Positions 21,951-39,059 of a stretch of DNA of 64,000 nucleotides are shown here, in pieces. Origin of the DNA: a virus; the IMG/VR virus record IMGVR_UViG_3300029825_000749, positions 253-64,252 of that record; one strand, 5' to 3'. Within the stretch, counting starts at the first letter, position 1; every line of letters starts with the position of its first letter. The translations under genes were made by a program, and so were the position numbers. Below the pieces are notes generated by a model. It saw only the letters and a program-made list of their open reading frames with translations. It had not been told where the DNA came from and made no database searches.

Positions 21951-23132
21951 TTGGTAAATTTTATACAAAGAGTACAGAAAGCAGTAACAGATAGGATACC
22001 ATCTATTCGCCAACCAGCACCTCAAAGCTCTACAGAAAAATTCATGAACGAGTATGGATGGCTAATCAAACCTAAAAACAAAGGAGCAGGTGTAGGGTGG
22101 CATGTATACTATCAAGCAATGGATAATGTTTGGGTTAATGCTTGCATACAAACCTACATTGATGAAGTGATAAATTTAGGATTTACAATCAAAGATCCAG
22201 AGAAAAAATCACAAAATAAAACACATATTAACTATTTACAAGATTTATTCCATTATCCAATGGGGTACACCTCTTACGATACTTATGCAATGTATCAAAC
22301 TTTGATGTGGAAATCTTACCTGGGACTTGGTGATGCTTTCAGTGAAGTAATCTATGATTTCCAGTATTCAAATGTACCGATTGGTTTAAAACATATTCCA
22401 ACAGAATGGATGCAATACTACCCCGATACGGATCAATGGGGATTTCGTGCGGACACACACAGATTTGAAGAAGGTGAACTCATACATGTAAAAGATCCAG
22501 ATATTAGAGGTTCAGTATGGGGTGAATCTAAGATTGATGTTATAGCTAAAGATTTAACTATGGATATCCTTGGCCAAAACCATACTTTAGGAATACTTGA
22601 GAATGATGGTTTAGATCCATCAGGTGTAATTGAGTATGATAAAGATATCAAGCCACAAGTATGGGAGCGTGAACTTAAAAGATTAGAAGCTGATGCTCAA
22701 AATCATGGAAAAGGGACTATAATTTTGAAAGGTGCTAAATATAACCGTGCAGGTGTAAGTAACAGGGATATGGAGTACAGCAACTTGATGAACAATATCA
22801 GGGATAGAATTATAGCAACTTATGGTGTTCCGCCTGCTAAAGTGTCAATTATTGAAACTGCAAACCTTGGTTCTGGGTCTGGCAATAGTCAAGACAAACA
22901 ATTTAAAAAGGAATTGAAAGGTAAAGCTAAGAATTTTGAGGATGCTTTCACAAGAGTGATGGGAAAAGGAGAATTCCAAGAGATTTTTCAATATAATGAT
23001 TTAGATATTGAAGATAAATTACAAAGAGCACAAATTGAAGACATACAAATCAAAAATGGAAGCTTGACGATAAATGAAGTGAGAAGTGCTTATGGTAAAA
23101 ATCCTGTTGATTGGGGTGATGCCCCATTATGA
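21951..23132 (+). CDS. Portal protein
   Basis: After terL; IIATYGVPPAKV and LTINEVRSAYG motifs. Confidence 0.92.
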   Translation: MVNFIQRVQKAVTDRIPSIRQPAPQSSTEKFMNEYGWLIKPKNKGAGVGWHVYYQAMDNVWVNACIQTYIDEVINLGFTIKDPEKKSQNKTHINYLQDLFHYPMGYTSYDTYAMYQTLMWKSYLGLGDAFSEVIYDFQYSNVPIGLKHIPTEWMQYYPDTDQWGFRADTHRFEEGELIHVKDPDIRGSVWGESKIDVIAKDLTMDILGQNHTLGILENDGLDPSGVIEYDKDIKPQVWERELKRLEADAQNHGKGTIILKGAKYNRAGVSNRDMEYSNLMNNIRDRIIATYGVPPAKVSIIETANLGSGSGNSQDKQFKKELKGKAKNFEDAFTRVMGKGEFQEIFQYNDLDIEDKLQRAQIEDIQIKNGSLTINEVRSAYGKNPVDWGDAPL

Positions 23133-23215: not shown

Positions 23216-24532
23216 ATGGACAAAGATGAAATAAAACTAAAACAATTTAAAATCACATCACTCCTCAAAAAAGACATGCAAAAGGATGAAAAAGCAGAGT
23301 TAGAGGATGATGGTTCATTAATACTTCGAGGGGTTGCAAGTACAAATAGTCCTGATTTAGAAGGAGATGTTATTACTCGTGATTGTATTGCGAGCATGAA
23401 ACAACAAGCAGAACAACTAAACATCCATGCAGATCACATATACAACATGGACAATGTAATAGGAAATATTCTCCGAGTATGTGATACTGATGATTCTGTG
23501 CTCAAAATCGAATTCAAAATCATGCCAAGTTATGCTTACACTATAAAAGAATTCTTAGATACGGGAATAAATTTAGGTTTAAGTGTCGGAGGAATCATAA
23601 AAGATTACAAATCTGATTTCGATGATGACGGCAACTTTGTTGGTTGGACTATTAAAGATATACAATTATTAGAGGTCAGCTTAACACCTGTTCCTGCAAA
23701 CTGGGATACTTATGGTACTGTCGAAGCTAAAGATGAAGATGATGTGGTTAAAGCAAAATGTTTATCAGGTGCATGTAACTTGATACGAAAAGATGTTGAA
23801 AAAAATAATAAAGATAATAAAGATATTATGAAAACTGAAAAAGAAGAAACTGTGGAAATGACAAAAGAGATTGTCAAAGAAGCATTACAGGAAATGAAAA
23901 AGGCTGAAGAGTTTAAAGCAAATCAAGTCACCAAAGATTATGTTTCCAAAATGCTTGAAAAAGCAACAAAATCTATCAAGGATGATTTGATGAAACAAGT
24001 TACAAAACTTGTAAGTGAAAAAGAATTCGATAGTGAATCCTTTAAAAAGGACTTACTTGAAGAAATCAGCACTGAAGAAGAATTCGATGCTGATGCCTTT
24101 AAAAAGGACTTACTTGAAGAAATCAGCACTGATAAAATTGATATGACTGCTTTTAAGGAAAGTGTAATCAAAGAACTCACTAAAACCCAAGAACCAGAAG
24201 AAATCGAAGAAGTGAAAGAATTTGATGCAGAAGCTTTTAAAAAGGATTTACTTGAAGAAATCAGCACCCTACAAACCACCGATGTTGATGAACTTAAAAA
24301 ACAAATACATGAAGAAGTTGAATCTGAAATCTTAAAAGATTTAGGAGCAAAACGCGAACCAGAATCTGTTCAAAACACAAAAAACAAATCTGAAATTACA
24401 GAAGGAAACAAGATAGGAAAATTCAACCAACGTGTAATGAGCATAGAAGATATCAGTAATGAAATGTTCTCACAAAAGACTAAGAACAATCCATTCAAAC
24501 GAGTATACCAAGATATTCAAGATTCTAAATAA
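23216..24532 (+). CDS. HK97-type prohead protease with C-terminal scaffold domain
   Basis: LRGVAST, IHADH, GLSVGG, LLEVSLTPVPAN; acidic helical repeats in the C-terminal half. Confidence 0.9.
   Translation: MDKDEIKLKQFKITSLLKKDMQKDEKAELEDDGSLILRGVASTNSPDLEGDVITRDCIASMKQQAEQLNIHADHIYNMDNVIGNILRVCDTDDSVLKIEFKIMPSYAYTIKEFLDTGINLGLSVGGIIKDYKSDFDDDGNFVGWTIKDIQLLEVSLTPVPANWDTYGTVEAKDEDDVVKAKCLSGACNLIRKDVEKNNKDNKDIMKTEKEETVEMTKEIVKEALQEMKKAEEFKANQVTKDYVSKMLEKATKSIKDDLMKQVTKLVSEKEFDSESFKKDLLEEISTEEEFDADAFKKDLLEEISTDKIDMTAFKESVIKELTKTQEPEEIEEVKEFDAEAFKKDLLEEISTLQTTDVDELKKQIHEEVESEILKDLGAKREPESVQNTKNKSEITEGNKIGKFNQRVMSIEDISNEMFSQKTKNNPFKRVYQDIQDSK
24023..24268 (+). repeat. Scaffold repeats (EFD.E.FKKDLLEEIST) x3
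   Basis: Two copies 57 bp apart (24023, 24080) and a third at about 24218. Confidence 0.8.
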
Positions 24533-24554: not shown

Positions 24555-25514
24555 ATGTCAAGTTTAGAAGATTTAAAGACAGAATTTGCAACTAAAGAGC
24601 AAATACAAGAATTAGCAAAAGCAATGGCTACTACAAGTACTGCTAATGATATGATAACTGTTGAATATGATCCAGATTTACAAAAGAAAGTATTCCATAA
24701 AGCACCATTTCTTTCTTACTTAGAACAAAATGGATTAATCACATCTGCAGAATCATATGAAGTAGGATATAAGGTTAAAGAACAGAAAACCACTGCATCA
24801 TTTATTAATGAAGGTGAAGATATACCTGCACATGATCCTGCAGGTTTTAAGGCTGAAATAGCTAAAATGAAAACACTTGTTTATCCAATTGAAATGAGTG
24901 ATCTCCTACAAGCAGGTATGCCTGATTATGATATTTTCACAGATGAGGTTCAAGATGGTTTCCTTGATATGAGTCAAACCAAAGATATTAAATTACTCCA
25001 AGGAAATGAAACCAGTAATCCTAAAGAATTCACAGGATTTTTCAACACCATCCCCTCTGAAACTACTACAGATTTGAAAGGGGAAACAATTACTGTAGAT
25101 GCGATTGATATTGCAGCACAAGAAGTAATTGATAATGGAGGTAACCCTTCAGCAATCATCACAACTGCAAGTGTGGGAAGACAATTAAACAAACTCTTAA
25201 GTGATAAGTACAGATACTTAGACAAGTTAGAACTAACTTTTGGTGCAAGAGCAACAGCATATAATGCTCCAGATGGTAATCAAATACCTATTATCATAGA
25301 TCCAAACATAGATACTAAAACAAATGGTGAACAATTAGCATTTATTGATAATGATACTGTACGTATGAGAGAATTAGCACCTATTAGTTTAATTGAACTA
25401 GCTAAAACCAAATTAAGTACAAGTAAAGTATTATTTACCTGGTTCACATTCTATAATCGTGCAGGATACAGAAATGGTTATATTAAAAACATTGGATCTG
25501 ATATAACTCCCTGA
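24555..25514 (+). CDS. Major capsid protein (HK97 fold)
   Basis: Position after the protease; A.FINEGEDIP and DIKLLQGNET..PKEFTG patterns. Confidence 0.92.
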   Translation: MSSLEDLKTEFATKEQIQELAKAMATTSTANDMITVEYDPDLQKKVFHKAPFLSYLEQNGLITSAESYEVGYKVKEQKTTASFINEGEDIPAHDPAGFKAEIAKMKTLVYPIEMSDLLQAGMPDYDIFTDEVQDGFLDMSQTKDIKLLQGNETSNPKEFTGFFNTIPSETTTDLKGETITVDAIDIAAQEVIDNGGNPSAIITTASVGRQLNKLLSDKYRYLDKLELTFGARATAYNAPDGNQIPIIIDPNIDTKTNGEQLAFIDNDTVRMRELAPISLIELAKTKLSTSKVLFTWFTFYNRAGYRNGYIKNIGSDITP

Positions 25515-25806
25515 GGGCAATGAAGGTGCTGAGAGTAAAGGCACAGTAAGCATCACAGTAAATGATGGAACTACTGCAGTATCTGGTGCAAAAGTATTAC
25601 TTACAGATACAACAACAACTACTAAAACCTTTGAATCCAGTGCATCTGGAACAGCAGGAGGATGTAGTATAAGTGATGTACCTTATGGAACATACAAAGT
25701 AACTGTTTCAACAGTACCTTCCGGTTATACTGCAAAAACCAGTTATGATAATCTTATTGTAGATGCTGATACAGAAACATTAACAGTTGCATTAACTGCC
25801 TCATAA
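25507..25806 (+). CDS. Start-less Ig/prealbumin-like domain frame; predicted +1 frameshift extension of the capsid protein
   Basis: Open frame with no ATG/GTG/TTG, beginning under the capsid CCC TGA; EGNEGAESKGTVSITVNDGTTAVSGAKVLLTD...VPYGTYKVTVSTVPSGY...LTVALTAS. Confidence 0.85.
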   Translation, partial: LPEGNEGAESKGTVSITVNDGTTAVSGAKVLLTDTTTTTKTFESSASGTAGGCSISDVPYGTYKVTVSTVPSGYTAKTSYDNLIVDADTETLTVALTAS

Positions 25807-25854
25807 ATGGGGTAGTTAGTGCATTTTTTTTATGAAAAATGAGGGTAAAAGTAG

Positions 25855-26421
25855 ATGGTTGATATAGATTATGGTAAAATAAGAAAATATCTAAAAGCAA
25901 ACAAAGTAACAGATGAATATAATGATGAAGATCTAGCTAGTTTGTACACCTCTCACCTCAATTACATCCTTAGTACAGTAGGAATTAGCTTAAACGAACA
26001 AACACAACAAATAACTGATATAAACAATAGAAACTTTAACATTCCAAATTATTTATTACCTAATTACCCAGTGAAAGAAATTACAGTAGTGAAATTAGAT
26101 GATAAAGTTTTAGATCCTGAAGATTATTTTGTAGATAAACAGAATGGAATAATCCGATGGAAACAAGAACTAATTGGGAATGTACTAGAAATCACTTTTA
26201 TTACAGAACCAGATGAATTCATTATAAATTTAATTAGAACAATCCTTTTGGATATGATATTATACGATGCTTCCGACAACACTGATGAAATAAGCACAGT
26301 AAAAGAAGGAGATGTGAGTGTAACATACAATACAACAAACAGCACTGGAAACAGAATAAACACTAACATGAATGATTTGTTAGATGTAATCAATAGTGGA
26401 AAGGCAAGACTAATAAAGTGA
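25855..26421 (+). CDS. Head-tail adaptor/connector protein
   Basis: Position; STVKEGDVSVTY motif. Confidence 0.75.
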   Translation: MVDIDYGKIRKYLKANKVTDEYNDEDLASLYTSHLNYILSTVGISLNEQTQQITDINNRNFNIPNYLLPNYPVKEITVVKLDDKVLDPEDYFVDKQNGIIRWKQELIGNVLEITFITEPDEFIINLIRTILLDMILYDASDNTDEISTVKEGDVSVTYNTTNSTGNRINTNMNDLLDVINSGKARLIK

Positions 26422-28097: not shown

Positions 28098-29348
28098 ATG
28101 GCAACAAAAAAAGTAAGTCCATATATAAGTTTAGGTGAAGAAGACACTAACCCCTTACTTGATGGATCTGGTAGTGAGATAGCAATATTCATAGGACCCT
28201 CAAGCAACCCCTCACCTACAACTATTACAAAAGATAGCTTAAAAAAATATGCAAAATATGCGAAAGCAGCAAAAACAGTAGAGGCTGGAGGATTAGGGTT
28301 AGATTCTAATATTGAAAACAACCCATTATTGCAGGTTGTGAAAGATTTCTTTGTAGAATCTGCAAAAACAAGTACAAATGATACTGGTGTGAGTTATTGT
28401 TATGCAATAGATTTAGGTAATGCACCTACAAATGCATTACTCCAATCTGCACTGGAATTATGCGTGATGAAACCTGAAATTACAGTAATAGCAATTACAG
28501 GATTAAAAAACACAACCGACAACACATACATCGGATTCAATTATGAATTCATGATGGCAACAGCACAATATCTCAAAGACCAACGTGATAAAACAAGATT
28601 ACAAATTGCCTATTTCCAAGCACCTGCAGATAAAACAGATGCAGACTTAATAAGCATGACAATGGGAAAACTCACAACAGATGGAAATAGAGATACTACA
28701 AACATTATTAGGAATAGTAGAATCAATATTGTAGAAAATAAGTACTTTGGAAGAACTATTGCAAGAATCTGTTTAACTCCATATTATGAGGAACCCGGAT
28801 ACAATTATTATCGTACAATAGAACCTGCAAGCACAGATGACGCAGTGGAATATTTCACAGAAAGAACACCAGATGAAGAAGACGCTTTATGTGAAGCTGG
28901 AATAATCTTTAACAGAGATGAAGAATACTTAGATCCAATACGTCCTTGTATCTGTTTAGCAACAAGTACAGCATATGCTTATGCAGATATGGATCGCCCA
29001 AACGATGCACTCCTACATGCAAGAAGAAATGCAGACCACCAATTACGTCAATTAGTTAAAATAGTAGCCATACAATTGAAACGTAATGAAACAAAAACTA
29101 ACATCAGATATGTGAAAAGTGATTGTGAATCCTACTTAGATACAGAGTACAAATCTGGTTATATACAATCTGATTATGGTGTTGAGATTACAGAAGCATT
29201 TGAAGATCCATATAAATTATATTTAAAAGCTAATATTACTCCGGTAAACAGTACACAAGCAATTATAATTAGTGCATATATTGGTTATCCTGCAGCAAGA
29301 GTATCTGATGAACTCACAAAGGTAGCAGCAACATCAGAGGAGGAATAA
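28098..29348 (+). CDS. Tail sheath protein
   Basis: 416 aa; starts SPYISLGE..AIFIG and ends ITPVNSTQAIII, sheath-like. Confidence 0.8.
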   Translation: MATKKVSPYISLGEEDTNPLLDGSGSEIAIFIGPSSNPSPTTITKDSLKKYAKYAKAAKTVEAGGLGLDSNIENNPLLQVVKDFFVESAKTSTNDTGVSYCYAIDLGNAPTNALLQSALELCVMKPEITVIAITGLKNTTDNTYIGFNYEFMMATAQYLKDQRDKTRLQIAYFQAPADKTDADLISMTMGKLTTDGNRDTTNIIRNSRINIVENKYFGRTIARICLTPYYEEPGYNYYRTIEPASTDDAVEYFTERTPDEEDALCEAGIIFNRDEEYLDPIRPCICLATSTAYAYADMDRPNDALLHARRNADHQLRQLVKIVAIQLKRNETKTNIRYVKSDCESYLDTEYKSGYIQSDYGVEITEAFEDPYKLYLKANITPVNSTQAIIISAYIGYPAARVSDELTKVAATSEEE

Positions 29349-29792: not shown

Positions 29793-30545
29793 ATGGGAAT
29801 AGAAAGAAAAACGAAGGAAGAAGTAGATGTAAACAGTTTCTATAATAAGGAGATGCTGCCGCAAGACCTTAAACAAATACCAATCGAGGTCTTAGATGAG
29901 AATGCACAAATCTTAGTTGAAAGGGTGGAAGCAGGAGAAACATTAATAGATGATGAATATGCTGAAGTTAGAAAAATCTTAAAGGAGTATCGTCCTTATA
30001 TTGAAAAATACAAACCTGTAGAAACTGTAAAAGCTTATGAAAAGTTTGAAGAAAATCTTACAACTGAAAGAGAACTCTTAGACATCTTAGATTATGATGC
30101 GGGGGGAACAACTTTACACATGAGACTACCTGTGCATGGAAAAGAATACAAGGATTTATACTTCAAAATTCGTCCATTAAATGATAGTCGTGCAATAAAA
30201 TTCAGTGAAAACCATATAGATTTATTTAAAGATTTGAAACCAAATCAAAGAAGAATTTATGAGAAAAATGCACGTGGAGAACCGATAAGTAAAGAAGAAG
30301 CAGATATTTTAAACAGTATCAATGATAAAATTGTTGAAAATCGTATTGAACAAAAAGCAGAACTTATTAACGAATTATTAGCATTCCAAGTAACTCCACC
30401 AGATTTTGATGGAGATATTGAAAAACGTAAGGATTTTTGGGAGAATAGTTTTCCATTTAATGCTAAAGTTTCCTTATTCATGAAAGTGGAAAGTATATTA
30501 GGTTTAACTGACGAATTTAACGAGAAACTTTTTCCAGATAGCTAA
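29793..30545 (+). CDS. Tail assembly chaperone (gpG-like)
   Basis: Between the tube and tape measure genes. Confidence 0.7.
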   Translation: MGIERKTKEEVDVNSFYNKEMLPQDLKQIPIEVLDENAQILVERVEAGETLIDDEYAEVRKILKEYRPYIEKYKPVETVKAYEKFEENLTTERELLDILDYDAGGTTLHMRLPVHGKEYKDLYFKIRPLNDSRAIKFSENHIDLFKDLKPNQRRIYEKNARGEPISKEEADILNSINDKIVENRIEQKAELINELLAFQVTPPDFDGDIEKRKDFWENSFPFNAKVSLFMKVESILGLTDEFNEKLFPDS

Positions 30546-30735
30546 TAGTTGGCAAGGAGAAGTCTATTTTAGAATTAGTAAACATTTAAACATACCTGTG
30601 AGTGAAGTTATTAAAAAGAAATTCACTCCAGATATAAAATTTTTAATATTTAAATACCACCAACAACTAATTTTTGAAAAAGAAGAAGCAGAGAAAATAA
30701 GAGATATGCAAAGTGAGATGAGAAGTAATGCCTAG
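30508..30735 (+). CDS. Chaperone frameshift extension (gpT-like), +1 frame
   Basis: Open +1 frame FFQIANSWQGEVYFRISKHLNIPVSEVIKKKF...SNA fills the gap to the tape measure gene; no ATG near its 5' end; CTT TTT C slippery site at 30528-30534. Confidence 0.75.
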   Translation: MTNLTRNFFQIANSWQGEVYFRISKHLNIPVSEVIKKKFTPDIKFLIFKYHQQLIFEKEEAEKIRDMQSEMRSNA

Positions 30736-37190: not shown

Positions 37191-37395
37191 TTTTATCACC
37201 TAAAAAAAAAATAAATAAATTTATTTGAAAAAATAGAAGATATTTTTGAGTTTGAGGAGGGGAGTTTACCCCCCCTCTTTCTAAATTCTTCAATGTAACC
37301 TTTTAAGGTTTAATTCCTTAAGGTTGCTAAAAAACCCCATATATTTTATTTAAATTCATATACAATCTGGTCATGTTATAAAACAAAAAAATTGT

Positions 37396-37480
37396 GTGAG
37401 TATATCCAAGTCTGGTCAAAGGGTGCAGGTTTAGATCCTGTTGCTTTAGTGCTTCGTAGGTTCGAATCCTACTGCTTATA
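37396..37480 (+). tRNA. trnL: tRNA-Leu (TAG)
   Basis: Acceptor GTGAGTA/TGCTTAT; anticodon arm GCAGG-TTTAGAT-CCTGT; long variable arm; T arm GTAGG-TTCGAAT-CCTAC. Confidence 0.88.
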
Positions 37481-37483
37481 TCA

Positions 37484-37553
37484 CCACAGATGTCAGTTCA
37501 AATCTGGCTTAAGTAATACGTTGCTTGATAGTATAATCTGGTGATTACAGTGG
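37484..37553 (+). ncRNA. Circularly permuted tRNA-like RNA (T arm, closed acceptor stem, D arm)
   Basis: CCAC-AGAT-[GTCAG TTCAAAT CTGGC]-TTAAGTA-A-TACG-T-TGCTTGA-TA-[GTAT AATCTGGTGA TTAC]-A-GTGG. Confidence 0.65.
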
Positions 37554-37925
37554 ACAATTCATACTCCCCTTATTAGCTCGAGACAATGATAAGGGAGCTA
37601 TATGGTTGTAAATAAATTCAAATGTTTCCTCTCATGCTGAGTTTAAATCTCAGGGGAAACTATTTTTATATCAAATCTCCCGTTCTTTATGGAAAATGTA
37701 TAATGGAAAGGCATACATTAAGGGGGAATCATTTATTTTTTAGATTTCCCTATTTCCTCATACATTTAAATAAGCGATTAATAATCATATGGTATTGTAT
37801 GCCCTCTAATAATTTAAACTATTTATGCTGGGTTTGGGGGCGATAGCTCCCAGCTACCACTTTAAAATTTAGTAAATAATTTCATGAAAAAGAGTAAATT
37901 GGTAAATATTTATACTCTTTTCAAA

Positions 37926-37996
37926 GGATTTATAGTGTAATGGTAACATAGAGGATTCCAAACCCTTTAATGTCAGTTCGATTCTGACTAAGTCCA
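37926..37996 (+). tRNA. trnW: tRNA-Trp (CCA), intronless
   Basis: GGATTTA/TAAGTCC acceptor; loop TTCCAAA; T arm GTCAG-TTCGATT-CTGAC. Confidence 0.88.
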
Positions 37997-38202
37997 TTTT
38001 TTTCAAATATTCGATAATTCTGAATAGTTCAGTTGTAAACTATTAGTTGACAACTTAATTTTATCACAAAGTGGTAAAGTAAAATACCACAAAATAGTAA
38101 AGTGATTTACCCGAAAATAGTCCAGTAAAAAAAATCTTCAAACAAAATTTTAAGTAAATAAAGCACGTATGAATTCTAAAAAGTTATTTAAAAACTAAAT
38201 AG

Positions 38203-38229
38203 GGTTTATTAAGGATTCCTTAATAAACC
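38203..38229. promoter_or_regulatory. Perfect 12-bp inverted repeat upstream of the XRE gene (operator candidate)
   Basis: GGTTTATTAAGG-ATT-CCTTAATAAACC, ending about 20 nt before ATG 38251. Confidence 0.55.
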
Positions 38230-38250
38230 TCATGAAGAGATATAAAAAAC

Positions 38251-38622
38251 ATGTTTAATAATCAACATATCACACAACGATTAAAAAAACTAAGAAACCA
38301 ATACAACATCACCATCAAAGAATTATCTCAATACTTACAATTAACTCCTAAAGAAATAAGAGAATTAGAAAATGGTGAAAAAACATTAACAATAAGCATC
38401 ATGGACAAACTATGTAACCTTTATGGTTGCAGTGAAGAATACTTACTATGCCAAAACAATTTCTATGATCCCCACCATTTCATTCATAGTAAAAACGAGT
38501 TAAAAGATTTAGGTGCGATTGCAGCAATGAACACTATAATAAGCAACATACAATTCCTTGATAAAGCATACAATGATTTTAAAAGTAATCTTATAAAAGA
38601 ATTAGAAAAGAATGATGACTAA
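38251..38622 (+). CDS. XRE/Cro-C1 HTH transcription regulator
   Basis: LKKLRNQYNITIKELSQYLQLTPKEIRELENGEK. Confidence 0.88.
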   Translation: MFNNQHITQRLKKLRNQYNITIKELSQYLQLTPKEIRELENGEKTLTISIMDKLCNLYGCSEEYLLCQNNFYDPHHFIHSKNELKDLGAIAAMNTIISNIQFLDKAYNDFKSNLIKELEKNDD

Positions 38623-38800
38623 TAGTTTAGAAGCAGAATATTATTTTGGAATCAAAACAGTAATAGAAGACACTACTACTTTTGATAATTACTGGAGAAA
38701 TGTAAATGCTCATTATTTATTCAACAAATACTACACCCACTTTAAAAAGGTAAGTCATAAATCAGAACACCAATTTTATAAACAATTTCAACCACCCTAA
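38612..38800 (+). CDS. Small hypothetical protein
   Basis: Overlaps the XRE stop. Confidence 0.4.
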   Translation: MMTNSLEAEYYFGIKTVIEDTTTFDNYWRNVNAHYLFNKYYTHFKKVSHKSEHQFYKQFQPP

Positions 38801-38925
38801 AAAAAAGTATGTTGCTATGAACACATTTTGGACACTTAACATTTTAACCACACTTTATTCCTTAAATCAAATTCTAAGTAAGTTAAACCATTTTGAATGA
38901 CCATATTTTTATACATATTATATGA

Positions 38926-39000
38926 GCTATTATAACACAATTAAGTTAGTGCAATCCCTGCGTAAGGGATAGGTTGTAGGTTCGAGTCCTGCTAATAGTT
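38926..39000 (+). tRNA. trnT: tRNA-Thr (CGT), degenerate or possibly pseudo
   Basis: GCTATTA/TAATAGT acceptor, ATCCC-TGCGTAA-GGGAT arm, canonical T arm; but G33, no D-loop GG, and A10-C25 mismatch. Confidence 0.65.
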
Positions 39001-39059
39001 TTTTAAATACACTTAAAAAAGTGTAATGAAAACATGAAAATTTTAAATACACTGAAAAG

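Follow-up and report, generated by a model that had tools for sequence, protein, structure and literature searches.

A putative +1 frameshift site at the end of the major capsid gene in tailed viruses of methanogens

The major capsid gene considered here ends in ACT CCC TGA, and the +1 frame across this end stays open for a further 97 codons that contain no start codon. The gene lies in a window of 64,000 nucleotides, by which we mean the whole stretch of DNA that was analyzed, and the record from which the window derives represents one 69,309-bp virus genome. The original prediction read the site as a +1 shift at CCC-UGA, and this reading is supported, as every sequence-level prediction for a shifty stop holds. 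The sequence evidence makes it highly probable that a programmed +1 ribosomal frameshift at this shifty stop would yield two capsid proteins from one gene, with predicted lengths of 319 and 416 aa.

The capsid gene and the open frame behind it

The frame-0 gene at 24555–25514 (plus strand) encodes a 319-aa protein with Pfam matches to SU10_MCP (1.5e-18) and Phage_capsid (4.4e-6); the former match (SU10_MCP / DUF5309) scores 67.7 bits against a curated cut-off of 24.1, and the protein also matches PHROG major head protein families. Foldseek searches with the core of the capsid model matched the capsids of SPO1, SU10, and HK97, as well as encapsulins, with E-values of 1e-15 to 1e-10 for the three phage capsids, though the model of the fused protein was itself only moderate (pLDDT 66.6). 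Upstream lie a portal gene (21951–23132) and then a prohead protease/scaffold gene (23216–24532), and downstream a head–tail adaptor-like gene (25855–26421) and a sheath-like gene (28098–29348). By profile, structural model, and gene neighborhood, the product is assigned to the HK97-fold major capsid proteins. Three viral tRNA genes, tRNA-Leu(tag), tRNA-Trp(cca), and tRNA-Thr(cgt), are located at 37395–39001, within the tail/baseplate region. The stretch in question occurs in public sequencing runs from 12 studies; fermentation, wastewater, sludge, soil, and groundwater are the sample types that yielded it.

A separate observation concerns the tail genes of the same virus. A tail chaperone-like ORF (29793–30545) ends in AAA CTT TTT CCA GAT AGC TAA, and within the region 30508–30735 its +1 frame is open from before the stop to approximately 30735, with the tape measure gene starting at 30728. 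The end of this ORF would be a second candidate for +1 recoding in this genome.

The layout at the end of the capsid gene could in principle reflect a sequencing or assembly indel that splits one in-frame gene, and an indel error at 25509–25512 had been named from the start as a finding that would overturn the frameshift reading. Contigs from four independent studies, compared over 25200–25900, agree base for base and contain no indel at these positions, which, as far as public data reach, excludes such an error; one spanning contig represents a variant strain that differs by substitutions only. The same CCC-stop and +1 layout also recurs in independent assemblies of relatives. All that speaks for an artifact is the a priori frequency of such errors, and its probability as an explanation is practically negligible.

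The proposed shift site, ACU CCC UGA, occupies 25506–25514 on the plus strand, with ACT beginning at 25506, CCC at 25509, and TGA at 25512; the triplet that overlaps CCC in the +1 frame is CCT. In the +1 frame, a TAA at 25504–25506 on the plus strand is separated from the extension by just two codons (CTC CCT), and the relative L001 has the same layout. This stop confines any change of frame to ACT or CCC, and of these two codons only CCC permits re-pairing, with CCU. From here the extension runs over 25513–25806 (plus strand), comprising 97 sense codons (25513–25803) and a TAA (25804–25806), with no ATG, GTG, or TTG among the 97, so that both the gene ending and the start-less frame that had been noted earlier are confirmed in sequence and translation. 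Translation with a four-base step at the site reproduces the 416-aa product (P0060) and the junction originally predicted for it, ...SDITPEGNEGAESK; the predicted tryptic junction peptide is NIGSDITPEGNEGAESK. The −1 frame is shut after 11 codons, and the two-codon overlap lacks a −1 heptamer of the A AAG GAA type. CCC is itself a rare codon in the long ORFs of the window, where it accounts for 8% of proline codons (43/520) or 2.4 per 1000 codons; among 54 long ORFs, an ending in CCC-stop is unique to the capsid gene.

The open +1 frame is not a product of chance. Stop-free runs of at least 97 codons did not occur among 4160 off-frame runs within 49 long plus-strand ORFs, where the longest was 90 codons and the medians for the two off-frames were 6 and 3 codons. 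When the extension stretch was shuffled 20000 times, a stop was lacking in no more than 16 of the shuffled sequences. Measured against the codon usage of the window, the extension has a log-likelihood of +56.8 bits in the proposed frame, versus −97.6 and −131.3 bits in the other two, and is per codon as gene-like as the capsid gene. Eight T residues at 25824–25831 on the plus strand, behind the extension stop, form a possible archaeal transcription terminator. Among nine loci inspected, the majority have an oligo-T tract 3′ of the extension stop (for L070, 3′ of the stop that ends the fused gene), most clearly the window, L043, L044, L003, L051, L069, and L070, and is absent or weak in L001 and L002; its position is consistent with a single transcript that carries both capsid gene and extension.

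The product of the extension is an acidic linker followed by a predicted domain, with Pfam matches to the SpaA prealbumin-like fold (7.5e-8) and CarboxypepD_reg (1.5e-5). An AlphaFold2 model, built with an alignment of nine homologous extensions, is an eight-strand beta-sandwich (pLDDT 90.7); among PDB structures it comes closest to a CnaB2 domain, to the pilin BcpA, and to B domains of SdrD (TM 0.68–0.76). At the level of profile and model, these results confirm a transthyretin/CnaB-type sandwich and bear out the CnaB/prealbumin-like fold first proposed from the translation. A covalent isopeptide bond, as found in pilin CnaB domains, was also considered and is not supported, as the extension alignment contains no conserved Lys or Asp/Asn; only G46, G59, and Y61 are invariant. 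Fraser et al. are said to have distinguished in 2006 three classes of phage Ig-like extension, namely I-set, FN3, and Big_2. As a C-terminal beta-sandwich on a major virion protein, reached by predicted frameshifting, the present domain corresponds to these extensions in arrangement; it lies outside these three classes, with SpaA prealbumin-like and CarboxypepD_reg as its best Pfam families. It is like the phage Ig-like extensions in how it works but belongs to a different fold family.

Purifying selection acts on the extension: its dN/dS is 0.36 (window vs. L001), 0.40, and 0.33 in three pairs of close relatives, against 0.07–0.10 for the capsid core, and the extension evolves approximately four times faster than the core; a domain that is constrained yet fast-evolving is as expected for an exposed position. 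This rate also bears on the view that the extension is the dead, unexpressed relic of an in-frame fusion (such as P0005, described below) that was broken by a 1-nt insertion. Such a history would account for the faster evolution, and for the fact that the in-frame fusion known in the family differs by a single base at the junction. It is difficult to reconcile with the dN/dS of 0.33–0.40, or with the approximately seven stops expected per 97 codons at 33% G+C, given how short off-frame runs are in this genome. Moreover, none of the relatives examined has lost the open frame, not even one at 32% capsid identity, and the break always falls at a CCC-stop and not at random positions. We therefore regard a dead relic as very improbable. 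As a side observation, the extension of the window (25513–25803) and that of L043 (L043:3453–3740) differ by a dS of 0.59, far below the dS of 1.39 between their capsid genes, a hint that lineages may have exchanged the extension module or that the RNA itself is constrained.

Shift site and extension among relatives

Protein and locus searches recovered approximately 30 distinct relatives, mostly in Methanobacteriaceae MAGs and viral contigs. In ten lineages, including the window, a CCC-stop is followed by a +1 extension that lacks a start codon and encodes a domain of one shared family (window, L001, L003, L051, L043, L044, L002, L013, L065, and vir080), and all ten end in [AT]C[TA] CCC followed by TGA, TAA, or TAG. 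The most distant named member is GenBank BK063677, "Caudoviricetes sp. vir080" (L069), a virus from human gut with a Methanobacteriales host and 31.6% capsid identity. Conservation of the CCC-stop in homologs had been proposed as a check on the prediction, and it separates the lineages cleanly: the 15 lineages that lack the extension end in GAA, GCT, GCA, or GAC, and CCC occurs in none of the 15. Extension-bearing lineages are interleaved with extension-less sisters on the capsid tree, indicating that shift site and domain have been gained and lost together.

Three more lineages end in GGG TAA, and in one (L059/L060) eight consecutive G precede the capsid stop. The capsid gene of L059 (L059:3572–3598, with the same sequence in L060) ends in AGT GGG GGG GGA AAT TAA, with neither a CCC- nor a GGG-stop, although L059 and L011, which ends in GGG TAA, have identical capsid cores. 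Judged from the sequence, the eight G could allow slippage of another type, by the ribosome or during transcription, into the same +1 tail.

One relative carries the domain without any change of frame. L070 (L070:3001–4272) encodes a natural in-frame fusion of capsid protein and CarboxypepD_reg domain (P0005, 423 aa), with the junction ACA CCT AAT (T-P-N); its sister L051 reads TCT CCC TAA T, with a predicted shifted product of S-P-N, and the two junctions differ by exactly one C. L070 adjoins both frameshifting and extension-less relatives, a placement that, on the sequences compared, shows recent switching among three states by a one-base change or by loss of the module. The extensions of L003 and L051 themselves end in CCT TAA with nothing open behind. 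A nested second frameshift at this point was considered and set aside, the final proline codon being CCT and no open frame following it; as a negative control, these endings indicate that a terminal proline without CCC carries no extension.

Database records give a different picture of the gene. The close homolog at NCBI is a 319-aa "DUF5309 family protein" from which the extension is omitted. For vir080, the stretch behind TCT CCC TAA (L069:3438–3710; BK063677.1 24167–24439) is recorded as a separate hypothetical protein with a GTG start inside the capsid gene; to judge from the sequence layout, this annotation is most likely a gene-caller artifact by which a frameshift extension is masked. 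Searched by megablast, a phage collection gave no match to the region, and a tblastn of the fused protein against the same collection returned vir080 only.

The vir080 annotation nevertheless corresponds to a second reading of the locus, namely that the extension is a separate small protein, for which ribosomes would use a non-canonical start or re-initiate once they have passed the capsid stop. Purine-rich, GGAG-like tracts that follow the stop in several relatives would suit such a route, as would a sister clade, described below, in which most of the domain is encoded as a separate ORF. Against it stand the lack of any ATG, GTG, or TTG in a frame that opens only two codons upstream, the lack of a start codon conserved among relatives, and the existence of the natural in-frame fusion in L070; separate initiation also leaves unexplained why a terminal CCC codon constantly accompanies the extension. 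On balance we consider separate translation very unlikely.

Proposed decoding and the split-domain relatives

The site combines the features described for shifty stops: CCC would sit in the P site with an overlapping CCU, the frame-0 stop is adjacent, the shift codon is rare, the +1 ORF is long and start-less, the overlap of the two frames is minimal, and site and extension are co-conserved. Beyond the established site anatomy, sequence integrity, fold, purifying selection, and comparative pattern, we infer the slip itself, its efficiency, the outward display of the domain, and its function, as follows. Most ribosomes would terminate at UGA and release the 319-aa HK97-fold capsid protein. While the stop codon is slowly decoded in the A site, the peptidyl-tRNA-Pro of a minority would slip from the rare CCC to the overlapping CCU; GAG would be read next, and the 97 further codons would give the 416-aa capsid protein with its acidic linker and CnaB/prealbumin-like beta-sandwich. 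The efficiency of the shift could be very low. The longer subunits would co-assemble into the head, and the domain would be exposed at the surface on a constant share of the subunits, where it would probably mediate weak adhesion to host or environmental surfaces.

A 5-bp hairpin (GUGCU-N9-GGCAC) can be drawn at 25526–25544 on the plus strand, at the rather large distance of 11 nt after the stop, and its role as a stimulator is putative. Its nucleotides are kept within a subclade comprising the window, L001, L043, and L044, including a rare GGC codon, and in L001 a U-G pair is changed to U-A; the hairpin is missing from L003, L051, and L069. When the 95 nt that begin at the shift site were folded for eight loci, the result was no structure common to the eight and no conserved pseudoknot, with z-scores of −3.1 to +0.6; the value for the window was +0.36, and the folding energy of its hairpin was not significant. 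A scan of viral contigs with the hairpin 19-mer returned only the contig of L001 and one unrelated chance match. A Shine–Dalgarno stimulator similar to that of prfB was sought as well, and GGUGGU Gly-Gly codons lie 3–6 nt upstream in some relatives, though not in the window. All three stop codons are used among the relatives, which argues for a slowly decoded A site as the main stimulator. The L043-bearing MAG, which is incomplete, contains 27 tRNAs, and a proline tRNA is not among them.

The same 416-aa fusion could be made by other machinery, through a tRNA that reads CCCU as a quadruplet or through slippage of RNA polymerase that leaves the mRNA one base short. Product and comparative pattern would be identical under either route; in addition, the virus has tRNA genes of its own (Leu-tag, Trp-cca, Thr-cgt), and the eight-G run of L059/L060 could support slippage by either machine. 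However, tRNA-Pro is absent among the three viral tRNA genes, and transcriptional slippage as it is known requires runs much longer than three C. The strict placement of a stop after CCC, with all three stops in use, fits instead a ribosome pausing at its A site. We give quadruplet decoding and polymerase slippage together only a slim chance, and ribosomal slippage at CCC is the reading carried forward here.

The sister clade mentioned above presents the domain in two parts. L011, L012, L063, L013, and L059 form a group with 97/100 support on the capsid tree, and L065, which is not on the tree, has the same layout (L013:3225–3861, L012:3557–4120, L011:3572–3997, L059:3572–4150, L063:1571–2134, and L065:657–1253). 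The +1 extension in these loci is only 26–30 codons long and ends in TGG TAA; following a CCC- or GGG-stop, it encodes only strands one and two of the CarboxypepD_reg/CnaB-like domain. What remains of that domain, together with a second domain, is encoded by a frame-0 ORF of 109–174 codons, which in Pfam alignments starts at approximately position 30 of the 82 in the CarboxypepD_reg profile. In 6/6 split-domain loci, the +1 stop and the ATG of this ORF overlap (A ATG GTA A), and a GG(A/G)GGTG tract lies approximately 10 nt upstream of this ATG.

Complex prediction with the 30-aa tail and the first 60 residues of the ORF gave a score of 0.60, versus 0.02 for the best control, which falls under the mark "weak support." This mark was reached by 51/78 solved complexes and 2/108 mismatched pairs; at scores of 0.60 or below, however, only 5 of these 78 complexes reached it, as did each of the 4 passing mismatches. 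The prediction shows, as a model, that the two pieces fit together as one domain, and says nothing on whether they are separate chains. As one alternative, the split clade could make a second, unexplained shift back to frame 0. A −1 frameshift at the second site was considered in particular and appears unlikely, the codons before UGG UAA (AAA, AGA, UCA) being without conserved re-pairing.

More speculatively, CCC-stop +1 sites may be an old, mobile cassette of shift site plus domain operating on archaeal ribosomes, which in the split clade would have become a frameshift-gated split-domain dock; we put this forward tentatively, as a reading that is possible but somewhat doubtful. Under such an arrangement, a decoration protein would clip, by strand complementation, only onto frameshifted capsid subunits, and termination–reinitiation would possibly provide the two parts in 1:1 amounts.

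Relation to known recoding systems

A close parallel in site and layout is the tail tube protein pair gp17.1/gp17.1* of Bacillus phage SPP1, in which a +1 shift at CCCUAA moves the ribosome from a rare CCC to CCU, produces the two forms in a 3:1 ratio, and adds a non-essential FN3 extension (PMC6316719). Both systems place a rare CCC directly before a stop, with a slip onto CCU, and both use a start-less +1 ORF of approximately 90 codons to add a beta-sandwich to a fraction of a major virion protein. They differ in that the present gene encodes the capsid rather than the tail tube protein, that the added domain is CnaB/prealbumin-like rather than FN3, and that the host is archaeal rather than bacterial; the SPP1 shift is experimentally proven, whereas the one described here is predicted from sequence.

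Listeria phages provide the identical shifty stop. According to Zimmer (2003) and Dorscht (2009), as related in PMC5009743, the tsh gene of phages PSA, A118, and A500 shifts +1 at CCC_UGA, while the PSA capsid gene cps shifts +1 at ACA_CCC_UCC with the aid of a pseudoknot. Like cps, the present gene belongs to a low-G+C genome in which CCC is rare, and the +1 shift falls at a CCC near the 3′ end of the major capsid gene; the cps site has a sense codon and a pseudoknot, whereas the site described here is of the stop type and no conserved pseudoknot was found for it. The original prediction cited PSA and SPP1 as precedents for capsid and tail extensions at CCC followed by a stop. This stands for the tail tube gene of SPP1 (CCCUAA; PMC6316719) and for PSA tsh (CCC_UGA) but requires correction for the PSA capsid, where the site is CCC_UCC with a pseudoknot (PMC5009743). 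Capsid extensions by −1 frameshifting are known from gene 10A/10B of T3/T7 and gp5A/5B of Lactobacillus phage A2 (PMC5009743); these genes likewise specify two capsid proteins each, the longer with a surface extension, and differ from the present case in shift direction and type of site.

Among archaeal viruses, the nearest case is that of the MSTV1-like "Usuviridae" of Methanobrevibacter smithii, for which a −1 shift at A AAG GAA is predicted to add an Ig-like domain to the capsid protein (Baquero et al., 2024, PMC11375127). Both are tailed viruses of Methanobacteriales, and for both it is predicted that recoding places a C-terminal Ig-like domain on some of the capsid subunits; both groups include one relative that is directly fused instead; both cases are predictions. 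Unlike MSTV1, the family described here would use a +1 shift at a CCC-stop, and the window genome has a sheath gene, whereas MSTV1-like viruses are siphoviruses. The tblastn search with the fused protein found vir080 alone, and the MSTV1 capsid family is therefore not detectably related at that threshold. A +1 frameshift has also been suggested for the haloarchaeal myovirus HSTV-2, with gene and site not given (PMC8211752). The two cases are alike in that a +1 frameshift is suggested from sequence in an archaeal tailed virus, and unlike in that no capsid protein extension is described for HSTV-2. The HSTV-2 frameshift reportedly involves a tail assembly chaperone pair.

A 2021 review lists one proven archaeal frameshift (−1, in fucA1) and no proven +1 case (PMC8211752). 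Our literature search, outside of which lies the methanogen virus compendium (Medvedeva 2023), brought up no description of an archaeal virus whose capsid gene has a CCC-stop +1 site. The novelty first assumed for the locus holds for this type of site but not for the extension as such, given that an Ig-like capsid domain added by frameshifting had already been predicted for MSTV1 (PMC11375127); the CCC-stop capsid site is best described as a new archaeal-virus case of a known form of recoding.

Recoding in Archaea is barely documented. The +1 site of this capsid family is compact and has good phylogenetic support, and natural controls are available in the extension-less relatives and the in-frame fusion relative; +1 frameshifting on archaeal ribosomes is therefore directly testable. 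Public records under-annotate such genes, as the 319-aa DUF5309 protein and the separate hypothetical protein of vir080 illustrate. For the viruses themselves, the predicted extension would carry the idea of an adhesive beta-sandwich that decorates the heads of methanogen viruses beyond the MSTV1 group of the gut.
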